In this document: in pieces, positions 1-29,821 of the stretch
How the letters are laid out: each line of letters starts with the position of its first letter
Numbering within the stretch: position 1 is the first letter of the stretch
IMG/VR virus record: IMGVR_UViG_3300017748_000071
DNA from: a virus
Length of the DNA: 29,821 bases
Strand: one strand, 5' to 3'
Notes under the pieces: generated by a model
What the model was told of the DNA's origin: nothing
Databases searched by the model: none
Seen by the model: the letters and a program-made list of their open reading frames with translations, nothing else
Made by a program: the position numbers and the translations under genes

Positions 1-108
1 AAATCTGCTCTCGGCGAAGAAGCGGTATCTCAGTATGAGGATAGCGTTGCTAGCCAGATAGAATTATCCAAGAATCCAGTTCAAGCGAGTGGTACACCGT
101 GGAATTAG
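1..108 (+). CDS. 3' fragment (duplicate copy) of the gene annotated in full at 29477..29806
   Basis: Lies inside the terminal repeat; same frame and same TAG stop (106..108 = 29804..29806). Confidence 0.7.
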   Translation, partial: KSALGEEAVSQYEDSVASQIELSKNPVQASGTPWN

Positions 109-123
109 TCGAAATCATTGCCC
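1..123. repeat. Left copy of exact 123-bp terminal direct repeat (identical to 29699..29821)
   Basis: Read directly: aaatctgctctcggcgaagaagcgg...gtcgaaatcattgccc is present at both window ends, offset 29698 bp. Confidence 0.95.
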
Positions 124-260
124 TGTTACCTACGTTATCGGTTTTGTGTTCTGCGATTTGCGCGGCAACCCCGACCCCGAAAGATGATGCGATATATGCC
201 AAGTATATCTATCCGGCTATTGAGTACATTGCTTTGAATTTTGGGAAAGCTAAAGAATGA
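99..260 (+). CDS. Small predicted membrane protein (53 aa, GTG start), below the ORF-track length cutoff
   Basis: Hand translation MELVEIIALLPTLSVLCSAICAATPTPKDDAIYAKYIYPAIEYIALNFGKAKE. Hydrophobic helix followed by TPTPKDD. Start overlaps the upstream stop and the stop overlaps the next ATG (ATGA at 257..260). Confidence 0.4.
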   Translation: MELVEIIALLPTLSVLCSAICAATPTPKDDAIYAKYIYPAIEYIALNFGKAKE

Positions 261-478
261 CCCAAGAAGAGCGCAATCTGGCCTTAGATGCCCTCGAACG
301 CATCGCAAAACATGAAGAAGTTTGTGGTCGGCGATGGGGTGAGGCATTGACCGAGTTAAAACAACTGCGGTCGGCCACTGACGCTCACGCTGCGAGATGG
401 GAAAAGCTTGCTTGGTTAGTAATCACAACAGCCCTTGCAACGGCTGCAACAGTAATCACAACACATTTTGTGGGGTAA
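257..478 (+). CDS. Hypothetical tail-anchored membrane protein (73 aa)
   Basis: ORF track; soluble helical N-part, then the hydrophobic C-terminus LAWLVITTALATAATVITTHFVG; coupled to neighbours. Confidence 0.6.
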   Translation: MTQEERNLALDALERIAKHEEVCGRRWGEALTELKQLRSATDAHAARWEKLAWLVITTALATAATVITTHFVG

Positions 479-480
479 AT

Positions 481-789
481 ATGTCCGAACAAAACACGGT
501 GAAGATTCCGACCTTTTTGCTACCAATCGGTGCCGCTGCGGTATCGCTGGCCGTCGCATGGGGAGTTTTACAATCTAACGTAGCTCACGCGACAGAAGAC
601 CGCGAACGCATACAAATCATAGCGGAGGAAGCCGCAAAAAAAGCAGCAGCCAACGGTCAAGCGCAAGCAGTGACGGACGCCCGTCTGGACGCTATCGTTG
701 CGAGCCTCGAGAAGCAGGAACAGATCAGCGAGAAAACAAACGAGCAGATCAGTGTTCTGGTTCAAGCTCTTTTGAAGGGACAGAATTAG
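481..789 (+). CDS. Hypothetical type-II membrane protein with coiled-coil ectodomain (102 aa)
   Basis: Internal ATG of ORF 397..789, placed 2 nt after the upstream stop with GTGGGG upstream. N-terminal TM FLLPIGAAAVSLAVAWGVL, then an Ala/Glu/Gln/Lys-rich helical region. Confidence 0.65.
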   Translation: MSEQNTVKIPTFLLPIGAAAVSLAVAWGVLQSNVAHATEDRERIQIIAEEAAKKAAANGQAQAVTDARLDAIVASLEKQEQISEKTNEQISVLVQALLKGQN

Positions 790-842
790 ACCCGTTTCCG
801 TTCTTTGACCCCGCATTAAAGTGCGATTTACGGCGCTGGGAG

Positions 843-1064
843 ATGTTAAAAACGTTACATGGCCAAGCGCGTAGGGACGCTGCTATCAAGTGGCTAACCG
901 ACGCGCAGCAGACTTGCAGTTTTGGCGCTGCGGTGTACGTCCAAAACAGTTTGGATCGGTATTTAGTCGGGGCGGTGAACCAGCGCATTAAAATGCTTAG
1001 CTGGAATTTAAGGGCTAGAGAGGCCGTCCAGACCCAAGTTATTACTAAAAAGCGGGAAATCTAA
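843..1064 (+). CDS. Hypothetical protein (73 aa)
   Basis: ORF track; GGGAG 4 nt upstream of the ATG; stop overlaps the next start (TAATG). Confidence 0.55.
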   Translation: MLKTLHGQARRDAAIKWLTDAQQTCSFGAAVYVQNSLDRYLVGAVNQRIKMLSWNLRAREAVQTQVITKKREI

Positions 1065-1324
1065 TGCCGGAGATGCTTGTTTATGTTTTGCTAATGTATG
1101 TGGGTGGCGTAGAAGAGCCTAACTTCCGAGTACATTTTCGCACTTTAAGCCAATGCGCTAAACACAAAGTGGCGATAGAACATCAGAGCGGTGATGATTT
1201 TCCGTACATCTTTCCTAAAACCAACCGCTTTAGCTTGGTCTGCATGCCAAAGATAATTACATCCAAGCAAGCTGGCACCGAAATCATATTCCACGACTTA
1301 CCTGATGTAGTGGCAGACAAGTAA
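1064..1324 (+). CDS. Hypothetical protein (86 aa)
   Basis: ORF track; TAATG coupling to the upstream ORF. Confidence 0.55.
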   Translation: MPEMLVYVLLMYVGGVEEPNFRVHFRTLSQCAKHKVAIEHQSGDDFPYIFPKTNRFSLVCMPKIITSKQAGTEIIFHDLPDVVADK

Positions 1325-1387
1325 CCTTTTAGCTGTCATCCAATAAGTTATTTGCTAAAGTATCCCCTCAACCAAACGGGGACAAAA

Positions 1388-1594
1388 ATGATCACAATTG
1401 ATGACGTTGAATATGCTGAAGAAGATCTAACCGAAGAAGCGAAAGCCAGAGTTGAACGCATTCAAGAACTGCAAAAACAAGTCCACCAAACCCTGCTAAA
1501 CTATGAGGAACTGCAAGCCGCAATGAGTCACCACGCGGCCAAGATCAAAGAGGCGCTTAATGTACCAGTACAATCCGACGAGGCCAACGACTGA
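1388..1594 (+). CDS. Hypothetical acidic helical protein (68 aa)
   Basis: In-frame ATG of ORF 1352..1594 (the track start is TTG); GGGGA 5 nt upstream of ATG 1388. Confidence 0.55.
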   Translation: MITIDDVEYAEEDLTEEAKARVERIQELQKQVHQTLLNYEELQAAMSHHAAKIKEALNVPVQSDEAND

Positions 1595-1611
1595 GTTTCT
1601 ATTTATTGAGG

Positions 1612-1983
1612 CTATTCTGGTTCAGGATTCATAAGCGCAGCCTTTCGCGCCGCTCTATCTATACGCCGCTGTTCTACTTGCTCCGGCAGACCGTACTTAG
1701 CAAATCGCCGCTCGTGTACTGTCCAAATAGAGCCCTTGGTTGGAGCGCGCCACAATAATTGCTCGTCATCATTCGGTATATCCGCGCAAGCAACCCTAAA
1801 GGCATCGTCATCGCCTTCGATAACGGCTAATTTCGCCGCAGCTATTTCATCCCAGTTACGCTTAACGGCGTCCAAGTACTGCACAAAGAAATCTACAGGG
1901 ACCATCTTCCTATTGTCTAAGACGGTGGCCCCGTAAAGATCTTCCTCACTTATTTCTTTCGTATCGCTCATACATCTCATCAA
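1612..1983 (-). CDS. Hypothetical protein, last gene of the early-left operon
   Basis: ORF track. The start is uncertain (ATG at 1983, 1980 or 1971) and it overlaps the upstream ORF by 26-38 nt. Confidence 0.6.
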   Translation of the reverse strand: MMRCMSDTKEISEEDLYGATVLDNRKMVPVDFFVQYLDAVKRNWDEIAAAKLAVIEGDDDAFRVACADIPNDDEQLLWRAPTKGSIWTVHERRFAKYGLPEQVEQRRIDRAARKAALMNPEPE

Positions 1984-2131
1984 TTTCGATGGCGTTGATG
2001 ATTGCCATGATTCGGCCTTTTAGCTTCATCAGTTCTGCAATCTTATCCACATCGTCTAGTTCTTCCCATCGAGTAGGGTATTTGATCTGAACATACCGCT
2101 GGTCGATTGACATTTTGTGCGCCGCCGTCAA
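1946..2131 (-). CDS. Hypothetical protein (about 55-61 aa)
   Basis: ORF track; the start is either TTG 2131 (TTGA overlap with the upstream stop) or ATG 2113. Confidence 0.5.
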   Translation of the reverse strand: MTAAHKMSIDQRYVQIKYPTRWEELDDVDKIAELMKLKGRIMAIINAIEIDEMYERYERNK

Positions 2132-2394
2132 AACGGTATATCCTCAACCAACTCTTTTTTAGTCGGCATCTCGGTCTTAGGCACTAAGGGCTCGCTGGTC
2201 GGCTTCCAAGTATTAACCTCGAAATACCAGCTACCCTTTTGGCTTTCCTTCATATCTATCTTGATTTTGTCAGGCTGAGATTCTAGCCATTTCACAAGAT
2301 CAGCCGTGTGAATTACCACATTAGCTTTGATAAAGTCCGGCGACTTTTCGTTTGGCTTAAAGGCTCGCAGACCATCCACGAATTGTTTTTCCAC
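2128..2394 (-). CDS. Small (88 aa) protein ending in an SSB-like acidic tip ...ELVEDIPF; candidate minimal ssDNA-binding protein or SSB-tip mimic
   Basis: GTG start directly after the upstream TAA, with AGGAG 9 nt upstream. The C-terminal EDIPF matches the DDDIPF tip of bacterial SSB. Lies next to the Rad52-like gene. Confidence 0.7.
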   Translation of the reverse strand: MEKQFVDGLRAFKPNEKSPDFIKANVVIHTADLVKWLESQPDKIKIDMKESQKGSWYFEVNTWKPTSEPLVPKTEMPTKKELVEDIPF

Positions 2395-2775
2395 TTACAT
2401 TGCTCCTAGTAGGGTTGAGATAAAAGCTGACACAACGACAGACGCAAATACGCATGTGCTGATAATTTTTTCGGGGCTTATCACGCTCGATTTAGGCGTT
2501 TCGACCTCTACCCTTTGGGGTTGGGTCTCTTCGACGGTAACTCGTTTAATTGGGGCTTTATAAGCCGTTGTACGGGCCCTATATCTGCCCTTATCGGTAC
2601 GGATCAAGAACCCGCGCTGGATGCAGTTATCCAACGCTTTCTTAACCTGTTTTTCACTAGCTTCTTTGTGCGACTTTCTGACCGTCTGCATAATGGCTTT
2701 AGTCGTTACGCCTAGATCGTGGCCTTGGACTCTTTCGACCACGATTTTACTGATTCCGTTTTTTGGTAACTTCAT
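2395..2775 (-). CDS. Basic putative winged-helix/HTH DNA-binding protein with a C-terminal transmembrane anchor (126 aa)
   Basis: ORF track; ATGA overlap with the upstream gene. Lys/Arg-rich N-domain (...KKALDNCIQRGFLIRTDKGRYRA...). Extreme C-terminus IISTCVFASVVVSAFISTLLGAM is hydrophobic. Confidence 0.65.
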   Translation of the reverse strand: MKLPKNGISKIVVERVQGHDLGVTTKAIMQTVRKSHKEASEKQVKKALDNCIQRGFLIRTDKGRYRARTTAYKAPIKRVTVEETQPQRVEVETPKSSVISPEKIISTCVFASVVVSAFISTLLGAM

Positions 2776-3269
2776 GCTGGCCTCGGTAGTTTTTGCTCGT
2801 ACTGCTCTGCAGTTAGCAATGGCCCGTCACGGTATAGATAGCGAGCTACCCCGAAAGATACCGCTGCGCGTTTGAATGCGTCACTGAATTGACCCTTTTC
2901 GCCCTCGATACTGGTTTCACCAGCGCCATCGGATTTAGCGATCCACTGATCGCCCATCTTAATTGATAAAGTACAGCAGCAGTTGCCGCCGATCTCTGAG
3001 TAGTGTGATTGCCAACCATCTGGGCCAACTACAGCGTCGAGCCTAGCCATAACCTGTCGCGCATCGACATAGGAAAGCATCTTACCTCCCGGCCCTTTGC
3101 GCTCTTTAACTTGATTGGTGGGCCAAGGGCGTTTTAGTTCCCAAGAAATCAGCTCTGCGCTTTTGGTCATATCAGCCTCGGTGAATTTGGGTAGTGGTGA
3201 ATCTTGAACGATGGCCTCTAGCTCATCGAACACCTCGGAAAACTTCATTAGTTCATCTTTGACCTTCAT
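2772..3269 (-). CDS. Rad52/Rad22-family single-strand annealing protein (165 aa)
   Basis: Motif block LSYVDARQVMARLDAVVGPDGWQSHY...GEKGQFSDAFKRAAVSFGVARYLY is typical of Rad52-like SSAPs. I chose the internal ATG 3269 (MKVKDEL...) because it forms an ATGA overlap with the upstream stop; the track start 3365 would overlap the upstream gene by 100 nt. Confidence 0.8.
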   Translation of the reverse strand: MKVKDELMKFSEVFDELEAIVQDSPLPKFTEADMTKSAELISWELKRPWPTNQVKERKGPGGKMLSYVDARQVMARLDAVVGPDGWQSHYSEIGGNCCCTLSIKMGDQWIAKSDGAGETSIEGEKGQFSDAFKRAAVSFGVARYLYRDGPLLTAEQYEQKLPRPA

Positions 3270-3541
3270 GGCGTCACCTCGGTAACCGTACCAACAGCAT
3301 AACCATCTTGATCCGCAATGGTAGAAAAGCCATCGTGGTTTAGGTCGAGTTCGGAATATGACCACTGATTGCGCGGCCTTAGTGTTTCGCCGATTAATCG
3401 GTCTAGTTGGGTTAGGCCAAGAACTGAGTGAGTATCTTCGCCAAAGATAACAACATCGAATTCGCGGTCTGCGTCATCGAGTGGTTCTTGGTTGAATGGT
3501 GCGCGTGGATTGGCGCGGTCTTCATCGGATCTACAAATCAT
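3266..3541 (-). CDS. Hypothetical strongly acidic protein (91 aa), first gene of the early-left operon
   Basis: ORF track; AAGGGGA 5 nt upstream of the ATG; about 19 Asp/Glu versus 7 Arg and no Lys by hand count. Confidence 0.6.
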   Translation of the reverse strand: MICRSDEDRANPRAPFNQEPLDDADREFDVVIFGEDTHSVLGLTQLDRLIGETLRPRNQWSYSELDLNHDGFSTIADQDGYAVGTVTEVTP

Positions 3542-3595
3542 AGGTTTCCCCTTCTTAGTGTTTCTCGTGATCGGCTTCCCAACCGATACAAGAAT

Positions 3596-3632
3596 AATAA
3601 ACCCGTTGTTTAGGAAAATAAAGGTTTATTTT
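3596..3632. promoter_or_regulatory. Inverted pair AATAAACC (3596..3603) / AAAGGTTTATTTT (3620..3632) in the divergent early control region
   Basis: Read directly. The right arm shares the 14-mer AAAATAAAGGTTTA (3615..3628) with 4220..4233 and the core AAAGGTTTAYTTT with 9886..9898 (minus strand). Confidence 0.5.
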
Positions 3633-3653
3633 TAGTTTTAGCTGATTTAAGAT
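3625..3653 (+). promoter_or_regulatory. Candidate sigma70-type promoter for the cro-like gene (-35 TTTATT, 17-nt spacer, -10 TAAGAT)
   Basis: Hexamers read by eye. The predicted start falls at or next to the A of ATG 3660, and no Shine-Dalgarno is visible, so the mRNA could be leaderless. Confidence 0.35.
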
Positions 3654-3659
3654 CGCCCG

Positions 3660-3860
3660 ATGGATCAGGAAGTTTTTACAAGAATCAAAAAGTACATTGG
3701 GACGCAGCGCGACTTAGCGAAGCATCTCGGTGTACAACCTCAGGCAATCTCGAAGTGGAAGCGAACGCAGATCCCTGCGACTAGGGTGGTAGAGATTGAA
3801 CGATTAACTGGCGGAAATGTAACTCGCCAAGAAATCAGACCTGATGTATTCTACGGTTGA
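3660..3860 (+). CDS. Cro/YdaS-like helix-turn-helix transcriptional regulator (66 aa)
   Basis: GTQRDLAKHLGVQPQAISKWKR...IPATRVVEIERLTGG is the pattern of small Cro/YdaS-type phage HTH proteins. It sits at the divergent early region. Confidence 0.8.
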   Translation: MDQEVFTRIKKYIGTQRDLAKHLGVQPQAISKWKRTQIPATRVVEIERLTGGNVTRQEIRPDVFYG

Positions 3861-3862
3861 GC

Positions 3863-3904
3863 ACCGGCCTCCACATCCCCCGAAGACTTCCCACGGAGGT
3901 CGGT
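3863..3904 (+). promoter_or_regulatory. Stable hairpin 3 nt after the cro-like stop (10-bp stem accggcctcc / ggaggtcggt, 22-nt loop)
   Basis: Paired by hand: 9 Watson-Crick pairs plus 1 G-U. There is no downstream U-tract, so it is not a canonical intrinsic terminator. Confidence 0.4.
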
Positions 3905-4219
3905 TGCTCCCCTTATCCAAGCTTCACGAAAGTGGCAGAAACCCTAACGGGCGCGGTCTAATCAGTATTGAACCGTTGAGCGAAACAAATCTGAAGACAA
4001 TTATCTGGAACTTGCGCGCTATAGGTGCGGCGCGAAATTGAACATCCGTTAACGGTGGCAAAAATCCTCGAATGAGGTGGTCGGGTTGGGTCACACCTGC
4101 ATATACCGCAAAGTGATTGGATGGAAATACAAGCCAGATATAAAAAACTCCCCCAGATGCTTTAGGCCACCCTACGCACCTATCGGTCGCTATGGCAAAA
4201 ATTAATTTCGCTAAATAGT

Positions 4220-4259
4220 AAAATAAAGGTTTACTTTAGTATGTAGGCCATTAAAGTAA
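4220..4259 (+). promoter_or_regulatory. Second copy of the AAAATAAAGGTTTA motif with a candidate promoter (-35 TTTACT 4230..4235, 16-nt spacer, -10 TAAAGT 4252..4257) and an 8-bp inverted repeat TTACTTTA/TAAAGTAA
   Basis: Read directly; located about 40-70 nt upstream of the AGGAG-ATG of gene 4299. Confidence 0.45.
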
Positions 4260-4298
4260 CGAGTGTCGAAATTAAGTAATAACCAATAGGAGAACGAC

Positions 4299-4928
4299 AT
4301 GGCCAAGCACACTTACAAAGGAACCTGCCAAGTTTGCGGAAGCGTTCAAGCGATAACAGGCGAAGCTGGCGTAATCGCAAAACACGGATACACCGTAGAA
4401 TGGGGCTTTTTTAACGGAACCTGCTCAGGATCGCACTCGAAGCCACTAGAGCAAGATAAGTGGCTTACCGAGAAAATGATTAAGCACTTACGAGAAGAAG
4501 GCGAAGAAATGGCGGCAAAAACAATCGCCGACATCAAAACAGCATCGCTAACAATTAGAACTCAGCAGAAGACCTACACTTTTAACAAGGAATCGAACAT
4601 AGAAGAAGAGCTAGGCAACTTTTTTCTAATGTTTGGCGCACCTACATTTGAAGAATTGGCAGGAGATAATCTTGCAGCAATTCACCGTCAAGCCAAGAGC
4701 GTATTAGACCACGCCGACTACCTAACCCGCTTAATCGAAAAGCGCCACGGTCAGGAGCTATACCCAGCGCCAAAGCAGCAAGAAGTTGAGCGCATCAAAG
4801 AGCTTTATAACAAATACCAGCAAGCAGTTAGCCGGAAAGCAGAACTTACTGCGGAAGGCTGGAGAGCGCGACTCAAAAGATCTTTTGAGGGATACGTTGT
4901 AACAGCAACTAGAAAGGTGGCCGCTTAG
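4299..4928 (+). CDS. Hypothetical protein with an N-terminal Cys cluster (CxxC...C), 209 aa
   Basis: ORF track; AGGAG RBS. N-terminus GTCQVCGSVQAI...HGYTVEWGFFNGTCSG, then a helical charged region. It is the first gene after the long non-coding region and lies upstream of the helicase. Confidence 0.7.
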   Translation: MAKHTYKGTCQVCGSVQAITGEAGVIAKHGYTVEWGFFNGTCSGSHSKPLEQDKWLTEKMIKHLREEGEEMAAKTIADIKTASLTIRTQQKTYTFNKESNIEEELGNFFLMFGAPTFEELAGDNLAAIHRQAKSVLDHADYLTRLIEKRHGQELYPAPKQQEVERIKELYNKYQQAVSRKAELTAEGWRARLKRSFEGYVVTATRKVAA

Positions 4929-4949
4929 GCGGTCCCCCTGGGGTTAACC

Positions 4950-5126
4950 ATGAAGACAATTACCGAGCGCGAAGTTACGCAACTTGCAGAGCAAGTCGAT
5001 ATTTTGGAAACGGCTTTAGCTGACATGCCAACGGATCACGCAGACCGATTTAAGATGCGATGCCAAGTAAAATTGGCGCGACTAAAACTTAAAGATGCAG
5101 TTTGGCAATTAGCGTGGCAAATCTAA
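4950..5126 (+). CDS. Small hypothetical ORF (58 aa), below the track cutoff
   Basis: Hand translation MKTITEREVTQLAEQVDILETALADMPTDHADRFKMRCQVKLARLKLKDAVWQLAWQI. Its TAA overlaps the helicase ATG (TAATG at 5124..5128). Confidence 0.45.
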   Translation: MKTITEREVTQLAEQVDILETALADMPTDHADRFKMRCQVKLARLKLKDAVWQLAWQI

Positions 5127-6646
5127 TGCAGCTTAGGGATTATCAAAGTAAGGCGGTTGTGGAATCAATCGCCGAACTACCCAAGCACGACGCGATAATA
5201 CTGCACGCACCAACAGGCTCTGGCAAAACGGTTATGGCTGCGGCTATAGCTGACCACTATCTACACCGACAGCAACGGGTACTTTTCTTACTGCCACGAC
5301 GCGAGTTAGTGGATCAGACCGCGGATAAGTTTGACGCGATTGGGTATAGCTTTGGCAATGATTACGGAATCATTATGGCTGGCGAAGAGATGACCTACTG
5401 GACGTTAGGTTGTCCGCTACAGATAGCATCGAAAGATACTCTACACGCTAGAACTAAAAGCGGCAGGATAGATATGCCAGAGGCTGATTTACTTATCGTC
5501 GATGAATGCCATCTATCACTAAGCCCTACTTGGCTAAAGCTAATAAATCACTACAAGGATCGCGGCACTCACGTTTTAGGCCTAACTGCCACCCCAGCGC
5601 GGGGAGATGGTAGGGGATTAGGGGAAGCGTATTCGATAATGGTACAAGCGCCAATGGTAGCAGAGCTAATGAACTTAGGGCATTTATCTACAGCTAATTA
5701 TTACGCGCCGACGCAAGTGGATCTCGACGGTATAAAGATTGATCGCAAAAAGCACGACTACAACGAAACACAATTACAGGAGCGAATGTCGCAGCAGCAT
5801 ATAGTCGGCGATATTGTTGAGCATTGGTTAAAGCTGGCTGGCGGCAGACGGACGGTGGTGTTCTGTGCAGGGGTTAGACATAGCATACTTGTAAGAGATC
5901 GTTTTATTGCACACGGCGTTGAGGCAGAGCATGTAGACGGTGGTACAGAAACAAACGAGCGTAAGGCTATTTTCGATAGGTTCAGATCCGGCAGAACGCA
6001 GGTACTTACTAACTGCATGGTTGCCACGTATGGTTTCGATCTACCAGAGATGGATTGCGTTGTGCTAGCAAGGCCAACTCAGTCGATTATTTTGCATTTG
6101 CAGATGCTTGGGCGTGGATTAAGAACCGCAACCAAAAAAGACAACTGCTTGGTACTAGATCATGCAGGTAATGTAGTAAGGCTTGGCTTTGCCAGTGACG
6201 AGGTTCCGTGGAGCTTAGAGTGTAAAGGTAATGTTTATGAGCGAATTGAACGAGAGCGATTGGTCAAAGATGAAGACCGCGAAGGAATTGTTTGTAATAG
6301 CTGCGGCCATATTTTTCAAAGCAGCAAAGAATGTCCAGAGTGCGGGTGGCAGTTACCTGAGAAGACAGGTAAAGACATACAAGTTAAAGACGGCGACTTG
6401 GTGGCCTACAGCGCGACAGATGGCGCTAATCTTGACGAGGTTAGAGTTTTTTACCAAGAGATGTTGGGATTATGCAAGATGCGCAAAAAGAAAGCTGGCA
6501 TCGCATATTTCAGAACGCTGGATAAGTATCAATTTAAAGCGCCATATTCTTGGCAAAAATTACAACCGTTACCGCCATCAGATGCAACGGTACGTTACGA
6601 AACATATCAACAAATAAAATACGCTAAAAGCAGGGGGCGCAGATGA
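5126..6646 (+). CDS. Superfamily-2 DEAD/DEAH-type helicase with a C-terminal zinc ribbon
   Basis: LRDYQ, Walker A APTGSGKT, motif II VDECH, motif III TATP, motif VI QMLGRGLR; CNSCGH...CPECGW. I prefer ATG 5126 over the track's TTG 5102. Confidence 0.9.
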   Translation: MQLRDYQSKAVVESIAELPKHDAIILHAPTGSGKTVMAAAIADHYLHRQQRVLFLLPRRELVDQTADKFDAIGYSFGNDYGIIMAGEEMTYWTLGCPLQIASKDTLHARTKSGRIDMPEADLLIVDECHLSLSPTWLKLINHYKDRGTHVLGLTATPARGDGRGLGEAYSIMVQAPMVAELMNLGHLSTANYYAPTQVDLDGIKIDRKKHDYNETQLQERMSQQHIVGDIVEHWLKLAGGRRTVVFCAGVRHSILVRDRFIAHGVEAEHVDGGTETNERKAIFDRFRSGRTQVLTNCMVATYGFDLPEMDCVVLARPTQSIILHLQMLGRGLRTATKKDNCLVLDHAGNVVRLGFASDEVPWSLECKGNVYERIERERLVKDEDREGIVCNSCGHIFQSSKECPECGWQLPEKTGKDIQVKDGDLVAYSATDGANLDEVRVFYQEMLGLCKMRKKKAGIAYFRTLDKYQFKAPYSWQKLQPLPPSDATVRYETYQQIKYAKSRGRR

Positions 6647-6972
6647 ATAGGGAAATCGACCAGCTTGATCGGATTCTTGATAAGCTAAGTACAAGAATCG
6701 AAGAATGGGATGCAGCGCAAAGCGAAGCAGCAGAAGCCGAGGCAAGACTAAAAAGCCAAGAGGCGATGGCCGCTAAAGCGATGATGGATAGCGGCATGAG
6801 CGCAGCCAAGGCGCAGCAAGAAGTCCGAGCCAAGGATGAATGGCAAGAAATGTATCTGGACGTTCAGTACAAAAGCATCGCAGCGCAGAAGGTAAAAATG
6901 CAGATCGAGCTAGGTAACAAATACTTTGAAGCCGAAAGAACGCGACAAGCTAATCTGCGGGGTATTCGTTAG
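6643..6972 (+). CDS. Hypothetical coiled-coil protein (109 aa)
   Basis: ORF track; ATGA overlap with the helicase stop; Ala/Glu/Gln/Lys-rich heptad-like sequence. Confidence 0.6.
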   Translation: MNREIDQLDRILDKLSTRIEEWDAAQSEAAEAEARLKSQEAMAAKAMMDSGMSAAKAQQEVRAKDEWQEMYLDVQYKSIAAQKVKMQIELGNKYFEAERTRQANLRGIR

Positions 6973-7376
6973 TGCCGGAAACCCTACGTGCTAAGGCTAT
7001 GAAAAAGCTACAACTCTTAGCCAGAATTGCAGCGGCAGATGATCACGGTTATGTGGATTGTGTTACCTGCGGTATCACTAAGCACTACAAAGAAATGGAC
7101 GGGGGCCACTTTATTCCCAAGGGTAAATCTAGCTACTGGGCATTAGAAGTGGAGAACGTTCACCCGCAGTGTAAGGCGTGTAATAACTGGGGCATGAAAC
7201 ACGGCGCAGCAGCACAGGCTTATACAATATGGATGATTGATTACTACGGCAAAGATTTCGTTGAGCATATGCTGGAAACGCAACGCAAAGTGAGGAAGCT
7301 ATACACGGCTGACTACCGCGATATGATTAAGCAGTTTACGAAAGACATAAAATATCACGAGGCGCGAATATCGTGA
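6972..7376 (+). CDS. ninG: NinG/Rap-like structure-specific recombination endonuclease
   Basis: CVTCG...MDGGHFIPKG...ENVHPQCKACNNWG...Y...G matches the lambda NinG (Rap) core pattern C-x2-C-G...D[AG]GH[YF]...N[IV]H.QC..CN. GTG start overlaps the upstream TAG. Confidence 0.8.
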   Translation: MPETLRAKAMKKLQLLARIAAADDHGYVDCVTCGITKHYKEMDGGHFIPKGKSSYWALEVENVHPQCKACNNWGMKHGAAAQAYTIWMIDYYGKDFVEHMLETQRKVRKLYTADYRDMIKQFTKDIKYHEARIS

Positions 7377-7591
7377 GGGGATCATTTAATGCGAAACGCG
7401 AAGCATCCCGAAGAAGGTTGCAGCAGGACGTTGAGAAATTTACAGAAAATGGGGGTAGAATCACCGAGGTGGAAGGGTATAAGCCAGTTGAGCTACTCTT
7501 CTGCTCGCACTGTAGGACTCGGAAGGCACGCGCCAAGTTTCCGAAGATTACAGGGATGGGGCAGTCAAAATGTTTTGATTGCGTACTGTGA
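7373..7591 (+). CDS. Small hypothetical protein with C-terminal CxxC...CxxC (72 aa)
   Basis: ORF track; GTGA overlap with the ninG-like stop; CSHC...CFDC. Preferred over the alternative frame 7389..7622. Confidence 0.45.
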   Translation: MRGSFNAKREASRRRLQQDVEKFTENGGRITEVEGYKPVELLFCSHCRTRKARAKFPKITGMGQSKCFDCVL

Positions 7592-7785
7592 AGCCGCGTC
7601 AGATAGCCGCCAAAATGATTAAGGCGATGGATGAAGCTGCTAAGCAGGTCTGGGAACAAGAAAAAGACCACATCGAAAAACAATACCGTAAGGGCTGGAA
7701 AGGACTCATTTGGGCGCATGTGACAAATCACTACATGAGGCAAAGCAGTGCAGCAGTATCGAGACAGGTCGGGATTAAACCATGA
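7588..7785 (+). CDS. Hypothetical protein (65 aa)
   Basis: ORF 7579..7785; the GTG at 7588 gives a GTGA overlap with the upstream stop. Confidence 0.45.
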   Translation: MKPRQIAAKMIKAMDEAAKQVWEQEKDHIEKQYRKGWKGLIWAHVTNHYMRQSSAAVSRQVGIKP

Positions 7786-8716
7786 AGAGTGGGTGGCTGA
7801 ATTTAAGAGATTGGGTGCGGCAGGATTCGCGCATAAATACGATCTTGATGTCAGGAACGTTTACAAAAAGCGAAGGATGCTTGAGGCGACATTCGGCGAC
7901 ATAAAGAACCCACGCAACCTAGATAAAAACGAACCAGCGAAGCATGTACGCAAAGAAATTAATACCGATGATCTAGTGATGATCGTCGGATCAGATGCGC
8001 ACTATCAACTGAATACCGTATCAACGGCCCATGTAGCTTTTGTTGAGCTAACCAAAGAGCTACAGCCTGACATGATTATCTTGAATGGGGATATGATCGA
8101 CGGGGCAAGTATTAGCCGACACCCGCCAAGAGGCTGGGAATACATACCAGCGTTATCCGATGAGATGGAAACCGTACAGCAACGGCTAGAAGAAATCGAA
8201 AAAGCAGCGCCCAGTGCCCAGCGAATCTGGACTATAGGTAATCACGATGCTCGTTTTGAGTCACGCCTAGCCAGCCAGATGCCAGAGCTAAGAGGACTGA
8301 CAGGTACGCGATTGGAAGACTTTTTCCCAAGCTGGTCGATCTATATGTCTATGCACATAAACTTCGGCGACAGGGAGAAGCTAGTCATTAAGCATAGGTG
8401 GAATGGCGGCGTTCACGCAGGGTATAACAACGTCTTAAAAGGCGGGGCCAATATGGTTACAGGCCACACCCATCAGCAGGAATGTAAGCCGTACACCGAT
8501 TACACCGGAACACGATTTGGCGTTCAACTAGGGACAATGCAAGAGCCACACGCGCCAGCATTTGAGTATGCAGAAGATTCCCCGAAGAACTGGGTCAGTG
8601 GCTTTGCTGTAATAACGATCCGAAATGGCATATTAATGATGCCTGAGTTTGTAAGAGCGCATAAGCCGGGGACTTACGAGTTTAGAGGCGAGTTGAGGCA
8701 GATAGATGATGACTGA
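7748..8716 (+). CDS. Calcineurin-like metallophosphoesterase with a roughly 75-aa N-terminal extension
   Basis: Ordered motifs GSDAHY (DxH), NGDMIDG (GDxxD), GNHD (GNH[DE]), TGHTHQ (GHxH). GTG start with GAGG 7 nt upstream. Confidence 0.85.
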   Translation: MQQYRDRSGLNHEEWVAEFKRLGAAGFAHKYDLDVRNVYKKRRMLEATFGDIKNPRNLDKNEPAKHVRKEINTDDLVMIVGSDAHYQLNTVSTAHVAFVELTKELQPDMIILNGDMIDGASISRHPPRGWEYIPALSDEMETVQQRLEEIEKAAPSAQRIWTIGNHDARFESRLASQMPELRGLTGTRLEDFFPSWSIYMSMHINFGDREKLVIKHRWNGGVHAGYNNVLKGGANMVTGHTHQQECKPYTDYTGTRFGVQLGTMQEPHAPAFEYAEDSPKNWVSGFAVITIRNGILMMPEFVRAHKPGTYEFRGELRQIDDD

Positions 8717-29476: not shown

Positions 29477-29806
29477 ATGGCAGCAACATGGACAGTATCC
29501 ACAATGGAACGAACCCTAACCGACGGCGACCTAAGCGACGTTGTAACTGTGCTCCACTGGCAATGTATCGACAGTGAGACAGTGGATGACGTAACGCACT
29601 CAGGCCGATGCTACGGCACTGTGGGGCTAGAAGCACCAGATGCGGACAGCTTTACTGCTTACGCAGACATTTCTCACGATGATGCTGTAGAATGGGCGAA
29701 ATCTGCTCTCGGCGAAGAAGCGGTATCTCAGTATGAGGATAGCGTTGCTAGCCAGATAGAATTATCCAAGAATCCAGTTCAAGCGAGTGGTACACCGTGG
29801 AATTAG
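29477..29806 (+). CDS. Hypothetical acidic protein (109 aa) spanning the repeat/junction
   Basis: ORF track; ATG 1 nt after the tail fibre stop; its last 108 nt lie in the terminal repeat. Confidence 0.6.
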   Translation: MAATWTVSTMERTLTDGDLSDVVTVLHWQCIDSETVDDVTHSGRCYGTVGLEAPDADSFTAYADISHDDAVEWAKSALGEEAVSQYEDSVASQIELSKNPVQASGTPWN

Positions 29807-29821
29807 TCGAAATCATTGCCC
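29699..29821. repeat. Right copy of exact 123-bp terminal direct repeat (identical to 1..123)
   Basis: Same string as 1..123; the window ends inside otherwise continuous sequence. Confidence 0.95.

Follow-up and report, generated by a model that had tools for sequence, protein, structure and literature searches.

We find that the fourth gene of a leftward phage operon encodes an 88-residue protein in which a 63-residue beta-rich domain is followed by a short disordered linker and, at the free carboxy-terminus, by the tip of bacterial SSB. The protein is a member of a new, large and unannotated family, and in phages its relatives lie downstream of single-strand annealases or of lambda-exonuclease-like genes. 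We put the chances at about even that it serves as a non-canonical, SSB-like accessory partner of the annealase in a phage single-strand-annealing module, a partner that would itself bind ssDNA.

The window, that is, the whole 29,821-nucleotide stretch of viral DNA analysed here, represents an entire phage genome, some 29.7 kb long, that either was assembled as a circle or bears direct terminal repeats; its first and last 123 bp (1-123 and 29699-29821) form an exact direct repeat. The genome has a GC content of 47-51%, encodes a siphovirus-type tail and a large terminase about 54% identical to those of Pelagibacter phages, and holds no tRNA genes.

The 88-residue protein and its family

The gene is read from the minus strand (Table 1) and yields the product MEKQFVDGLRAFKPNEKSPDFIKANVVIHTADLVKWLESQPDKIKIDMKESQKGSWYFEVNTWKPTSEPLVPKTEMPTKKELVEDIPF, with the carboxy-terminus ...PTKKELVEDIPF*, the last residues being KKELVEDIPF. 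Its GTG start codon (2394..2392) comes straight after the TAA stop of an upstream 126-aa ORF. Given that MEKQF is the N-terminus of all close homologues (about 8), and that the copy in locus L006, 97% identical, starts with ATG, the GTG start is well supported. Homologues align with the ORF from end to end.

Table 1. Position of the gene, of the parts of its product and of the neighbouring features in the window
Feature	Position	Strand	Basis or remark
88-aa ORF	2128..2394	minus	88 codons 2394..2131 plus TGA stop 2130..2128; GTG start
AGGAG Shine-Dalgarno-like motif	2403..2407	minus	8 nt 5' of GTG; read from sequence
Residues 1-63, compact beta-rich domain	2206..2394	minus	AlphaFold2, conserved columns, co-evolution contacts
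Residues 64-80, disordered Pro/Thr/Lys/Glu linker	2155..2205	minus	pLDDT 42-66; length and sequence variable in the family
Residues 81-88, ELVEDIPF, SSB-Ct-type tip at free C-terminus	2131..2154	minus	
91-aa ORF, first in operon	3266..3541	minus	no family match
Rad52/Sak-type single-strand annealing protein	2772..3365	minus	Pfam Rad52_Rad22 2.6e-16; PHROG 1097 'Erf-like ssDNA annealing protein' 3.8e-33
126-aa ORF between annealase and tipped gene	2395..2775	minus	
Two downstream ORFs, 61 aa and 123 aa	1612..2131	minus	no family match; conserved in L006
Cro/YdaS-like regulator, divergent, marking the early-region switch	3660..3860	plus	Pfam YdaS_toxin 4.9e-20, P22_Cro 2.5e-13

An exhaustive profile search over 1.84 billion cluster representatives returned 1,846 clusters (50% identity) at E<=1e-3 and 673 at E<=1e-10; the best 150 of the 1,846 representatives are 71-137 aa long. 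No Pfam, PHROGs v4 or NCBIfam model covers the 88-aa protein or its relatives, and every source name given to a member is 'hypothetical protein'. When 50,697 phage records of GenBank were searched by tblastn with the window protein, two divergent tipped members and one tail-less member as queries, a single member was detectable, an uncultured 'hypothetical protein' in MW202828.1. Megablast of positions 1-8000 of the window gave no match, and no description of this small tipped family was found in the full-text literature. In one member, P0151 (137 aa), the domain is duplicated in tandem (residues 1-72 and 74-136) and the tail is absent, which hints at a functional unit no smaller than a dimer.

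The carboxy-terminus is the most telling part of the protein. Among all stop-to-stop frames in the six reading frames of the whole window, the 88-aa frame is the only one to end in [ILVM]P[FW], and its E-D-I-P-F displays what defines an SSB-Ct motif, namely Pro-Phe at the free C-terminus, with a hydrophobic residue before it at -3 and acidity over -4 to -6. The end D[IVL]PF is present in 6 of 7 close homologues (46-97% identity); among the best 150 family representatives, 114 end in PF and 111 in [ILVM]P[FW]. Over 257 members the proportion ending in PF is 74% (190 sequences), the consensus from -10 to -1 being D/E, D/E, I/F/D, D, D, D, D, I/L/V, P, F, with Asp dominant at -7 to -4, whereas none of 604 ORFs neighbouring family genes ends in [ILVM]PF. 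In a profile comparison by hhalign with E. coli SSB, the last 7 residues alone align, and they align to FDDDIPF. The family consensus tip is thus the bacterial SSB C-terminal tip, conserved far beyond chance. The initial annotation had noticed this tip on the 88-aa protein and had asked whether homologues keep the acidic IPF terminus; they do, and the tip proves to be real, terminal and family-wide. At one family locus we also observe an unrelated 412-aa protein (L113:6072-7322, minus strand) that ends in ...NKLDTFDDDIPF, which suggests that the SSB tip has been grafted onto several different proteins.

The globular part is equally well defined. AlphaFold2 run on 143 diverse sequences gives residues 1-63 a pLDDT of about 92 (87-94 per 10-residue block) and the tail 42-66, superseding a run with 8 sequences that was unusable (pLDDT 54). 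The predicted elements are b1 (3-6, with a beta-bridge at 5), b2 (9-12), b3 (25-28), a helix (30-38), b4 (46-50) and b5 (56-60), with a loop KPxxxAPDF[IV]K at 13-23 and a TWKP cap after b5; this loop and cap, together with F5, G8, P14, P19, L37, K49, G54 and Y57, are the most conserved columns. Mean-field co-evolution contacts, calculated from 343 sequences (effective number about 230), independently back the strands and the helix of the model. They pair b2 with b3 (11-24, 11-26), b3 with b4 (24-48, 26-46), b4 with b5 in a hairpin (47-61, 49-59) and b1 with b5 (3-59, 5-57), and they pack the N-terminal strand on the helix (6-33, 4-36). Across the family the tail extends a median of 28 aa beyond the domain and is acidic (mean net charge -3.5), the domain itself being about neutral (mean +0.6).

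An OB fold in residues 1-65 had been proposed as a check on the initial annotation. The order of elements, b-b-b-helix-b-b, is compatible with such a fold; the sheet order derived from the contacts is 2-3-4-5-1, as against 1-2-3-5-4-1 in the OB fold. Foldseek against the PDB gives no match at E<1 and no OB protein, and against the viral predicted-structure library BFVD it retrieves only uncharacterised phage proteins. Pfam PF00436 matches neither the window protein nor any of 143 members (E<=0.1), and a profile search of PDB sequences yields nothing below E=0.03, the best match being a nanobody. The fold is therefore confidently predicted and not recognisably OB by Pfam, Foldseek or contacts; residues 1-63 apparently do not form an OB fold, a view that we draw from the Foldseek searches and the contact pattern rather than from the model coordinates.

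That the ORF, or the likeness of its last residues to SSB, is a product of chance has next to no probability. The shortness of the ORF would fit such an origin, and nothing else does; the 1,846 clusters, the confident fold, the co-evolving contacts and a tip kept by 74% of members and by none of 604 neighbouring ORFs refute it.

Gene neighbourhood in phages and bacteria

In the window the tipped gene belongs to a compact leftward operon on the minus strand (3541 to 1612), whose genes mostly touch their neighbours or share a few bases with them. It begins with a 91-aa ORF, followed by a Rad52/Sak-type annealase, the 126-aa ORF, the 88-aa ORF, a 61-aa ORF and a 123-aa ORF. The annealase is listed from a GTG at 3365; its true start is likely the ATG at 3269, which overlaps the TGA stop of the 91-aa ORF (ATGA, 3266-3269), an overlap that suggests translational coupling of the two genes and has a similar counterpart in L006. 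The presence of this Rad52-family gene bears out the earlier view that the tipped gene belongs to a recombination operon. The same view had the tipped gene adjoining the annealase, which needs correcting, for the 126-aa ORF stands between them. That ORF has weak N-terminal winged-helix/linker-histone-like matches (E 0.002-0.035) and a hydrophobic C-terminal segment (...CVFASVVVSAFISTLLGAM), and it is conserved in L006, L007 and L011. On the other side, the 61-aa ORF overlaps the stop of the tipped gene. A promoter and terminator scan of 1300-4300 stayed at or below the shuffled expectation.

No recognisable SSB is encoded in this complete genome, as judged by tblastn with E. coli SSB and by Pfam over most called ORFs of at least 55 aa (the tape-measure gene, at 1,537 aa, and some frames that are short or overlap others lie outside this Pfam set). 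The rightward early region (4299-4928, 5102-6646, 6972-7376, 7748-8716) encodes an SF2 helicase (ResIII/DEAD), a NinG-like protein and a metallophosphoesterase; among its Pfam-scanned ORFs there is no recognisable DNA polymerase, primase, integrase or CI-type repressor.

Relatives in other phages keep the same company. Nine diverse contigs have precomputed Pfam assignments, and in 8 of them the family gene is preceded on its own strand, at a distance of 0-2 genes, by ERF or Rad52 (ERF in L001, L002, L129, L130, L131, L133 and L134, Rad52 in L128, none recognised in L132), and in none of the 9 is a PF00436 SSB found within 10 kb of the family gene. A single peptide pattern identified 258 confirmed relatives in IMG/VR, 80 of which were fetched. 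Within three positions of tipped members at the fetched loci, Pfam recognises YqaJ (6), ERF (5), Rad52_Rad22 (5), NinG (5) and SSAP_Sak (3), and SSB not at all; one upstream gene is lambda-exonuclease-like (PDB sequence 3syy, 6.5e-27) and another is of the DUF1071/Sak type (PDB sequence 8qe9, 1.4e-23). Dereplication left 45 tipped loci (28 on viral contigs and the window, 17 in MAGs or genomes), which are not phylogenetically independent and of which 19 have an annealase upstream, 5 an exonuclease only and 21 neither, 15 of these 21 being bacterial MAG or genome loci. Counting the 28 viral loci alone, an annealase is upstream in 15 and a lambda-exonuclease-like gene in 5 more. The recombination context is accordingly upheld, the slot downstream of ERF, Rad52 or Sak annealases being kept across unrelated phage contigs. 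Phage recombination modules typically pair an annealase gene with ssb, as erf-ssb, rad52-ssb or duf1071-ssb (PMC8093625), and it is the usual ssb slot of these modules that the tipped family occupies.

Two of these contigs, L129 (11589-12587, 15452-16004) and L133 (15493-18127), carry a module of ERF, exonuclease and family gene, and they also encode RecA, the chaperonins Cpn10 and Cpn60 and an Acb2/Tad1-hairpin-like protein. Small genes that follow annealases or DNA polymerase can be nuclease inhibitors, such as P22 Abc2 and T7 gp5.9, so that gene position alone is no proof of SSB function.

About a quarter of the family consists of the domain alone, with no tail. These members include a coherent marine clade of 68-73 aa that ends in ...TWKPRSE (L014-L072, for example L044:3989-4195 and L017:884-1102). 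Across 21 tail-less loci, 11 have a family-A DNA polymerase a few genes upstream and none has an annealase or exonuclease beside the gene. These polymerases are similar to ones from Pelagibacter-phage-like genomes of roughly 60 kb; in HTVC023P and DSL-LC04, two isolates with related DNA polymerase A, no family member lies near the polymerase. Since the domain persists without the tail in so many members, it has a function of its own and, as its place beside DNA polymerase A indicates, it works in DNA-replication contexts without the tip.

A further branch is cellular. In bacterial MAGs (L099, L101, L107, L102-L106, L108, L112) the tipped genes are ordinary chromosomal genes and not prophage genes. 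In two Gammaproteobacteria with shared synteny the tipped gene is placed between nitroreductase-like genes and a PhoD-like gene, in five Pseudomonadales MAGs between dehydrogenase-like genes, and in a complete 1.29-Mb Moraniibacteriota (CPR) genome next to ispD; these metabolic neighbours offer no functional hint. The gammaproteobacterial MAG members have Pro/Gly/Asn/Gln-rich linkers of 33-49 aa and ends such as FDDDIPF, DYDDDIPF and DDMDDDIPF, and as read from their sequences they possess the full C-terminal architecture of a proteobacterial SSB. The ends are IENIPF, NSLPF or VDLPF in members from Ignavibacteria and Cytophagales bins, and IGKVPF in the two tipped Moraniibacteriota members. 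Given that these ends differ from those of the gammaproteobacterial FDDDIPF type, the tip varies with host lineage.

Relation to known SSB proteins

Bacterial SSB of the E. coli type (PF00436/TIGR00621) resembles the tipped family in having a disordered linker and an acidic tip that ends in [I/L]PF at a free carboxy-terminus. Its globular part, in contrast, comprises about 115 residues against 63, and the tipped family differs further in lacking a PF00436 match and a Foldseek OB match and in its inferred strand order. TIGR00621 matches one family member, and there only the tail.

Another parallel is the SSB of phage HK620 (HkaK, DUF669/N4 gp45-like), which likewise has no obvious similarity to bacterial SSB, carries an acidic tail ending in PF and is encoded directly after an annealase. 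It differs in length (195 aa against 88) and in its partner, which is Sak4, whereas the tipped family goes with ERF, Rad52 or Sak. Loading and stimulation of Sak4 depend on the six C-terminal residues of HK620 SSB (PMC5928155), and the annealase Red-beta binds the SSB-Ct peptide with a Kd of 11 uM (PMC6393309). SSBs of the DUF669 and N4 types were predicted from their acidic tails and from the absence of another SSB (PMC4889955); given that the tipped protein too has an acidic tail in a genome with no other recognisable SSB, the same logic applies to it. Membership of DUF669 itself was considered and rejected: two members gave E=0.018, which was not reproduced, and hhalign against an alignment of 28 HK620-SSB sequences returned a probability of 1%.

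The ORF34-type SSB of lactococcal phage p2 and T7 gp2.5 are comparable as phage-specific SSBs that act with annealing and replication proteins, and unlike the tipped family they are solved variants of the OB fold, which neither the PDB profile search nor Foldseek matched. T7 gp2.5 works through an acidic tail whose last residue is Phe. ORF34 of p2 was reportedly first suspected from its place downstream of the annealase gene (Scaltriti 2009). No sequence or fold similarity to the tipped family was found in any of the solved phage SSBs T7 gp2.5, T4 gp32, p2 ORF34, Enc34 and Ff gene V. By these comparisons of sequence and fold the tipped protein falls outside every SSB family tested, whether PF00436, DUF669 or the solved SSB structures.

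Two other candidates were set aside. P22 Abc1 occupies the same slot after erf and is unrelated (hhalign probability 0.1%); for gp49 of mycobacteriophage L5 (PF25690) the matches were sub-threshold, in a low-complexity part, with an hhalign probability of 0.5%. A phage SSB-like protein with an FDDDIPF C-terminus, Bas52_0087, has been described in a preprint as the trigger of the DRT10 defence system, and the proposal there is that it interacts with clients of host SSB, SbcB among them (10.64898/2026.04.29.721553). Bas52_0087 is much larger (>350 aa) and has two predicted OB folds, and therefore belongs to a different family.

Possible functions of the tipped protein

If the protein is an SSB-like partner of the annealase, its globular domain, probably as an oligomer, would bind the ssDNA exposed in recombination and replication, and its free acidic ...EDIPF carboxy-terminus would act as a docking peptide that recruits a partner, presumably the phage's own Rad52-like annealase. 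The tip, being a copy of the host SSB tip, could likewise attract the host's own SSB-docking proteins. In favor of SSB-like function are the architecture, the conservation of the tip, the gene position and the lack of a recognisable SSB in the complete genome; against it stands the domain, which has no sequence or fold likeness to known ssDNA-binding proteins, a non-OB order, about neutral charge and only 63 residues.

The same features of the domain make one ask whether the protein coats ssDNA at all. It might instead be a mediator or adaptor whose domain attaches to the annealase, to the exonuclease or to a DNA junction, while the tip either tethers the complex to host SSB clients (PriA, chi, DnaG, RecO) or fills the SSB-Ct site of the annealase, annealing being thereby coupled to the host replication fork. 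We consider this unlikely, though well worth weighing: a very small, near-neutral domain unlike DNA-binding folds would suit an adaptor, as would the most conserved element, the Pro-rich surface loop KPxxxAPDFVK, which could form a protein-protein interface, and small accessory factors such as P22 Arf (annotated) do exist in such modules. The slot is moreover kept after three unrelated annealase families and after exonucleases, which speaks for an adaptor; yet that the very same domain follows whichever annealase family lies upstream argues against a family-specific protein contact, and tail-less members with no annealase nearby and cellular members with no recombination genes do not fit an adaptor of recombination. 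Improbable, in our judgement, is that the tip is chiefly a decoy or inhibitor, a role that the initial annotation had also raised in the form of titration of SSB clients. A protein of this kind would offer SSB-Ct peptides in competition with host SSB, would titrate or block Exonuclease I, RecJ, RecQ or defence systems that monitor SSB, and so protect the 3' ssDNA tails of recombination intermediates. Such a role accords with a tip that copies the host-type motif (MAG members have the exact FDDDIPF), that co-occurs with recombination modules and that is absent from the polymerase-linked clade, and a preprint proposes that a phage SSB-like FDDDIPF protein interferes with SbcB (10.64898/2026.04.29.721553). 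For a decoy, though, the tail would suffice, and yet conservation is strongest in the 63-residue domain and the tail is missing from about a quarter of members, which weakens the case for a pure decoy; chromosomal copies in bacteria would be self-inhibitory and, by our own reasoning, a monomer with one tip would compete poorly with the four tips of host SSB unless it were abundant or oligomeric.

Returning to the SSB-like reading, we tentatively go one step further, to a proposal that we rate somewhat below an even chance. The domain may be an undescribed non-OB ssDNA-binding fold that, joined to a complete SSB linker and tip, constitutes a second, independent class of SSB-like protein, which uncultured phages employ after their annealases and which free-living marine Gammaproteobacteria and CPR bacteria employ as well; the tip would then be a portable element that evolution grafts onto unrelated domains.

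What would this mean for the biology of the SSB tip? In bacteria the tip organises at least a dozen genome-maintenance enzymes, and during recombineering it sets which phage annealases work in which host. In the tipped family it is carried by a much smaller, unrelated domain that is abundant in uncultured phages and present in bacterial chromosomes as well. Should the domain bind ssDNA, the family would represent a new minimal class of SSB and could supply compact partners for ERF, Rad52 or Sak annealases in genome-editing tools; should it not, the family would be a natural case of the SSB tip serving as a stand-alone hijacking or regulatory peptide.
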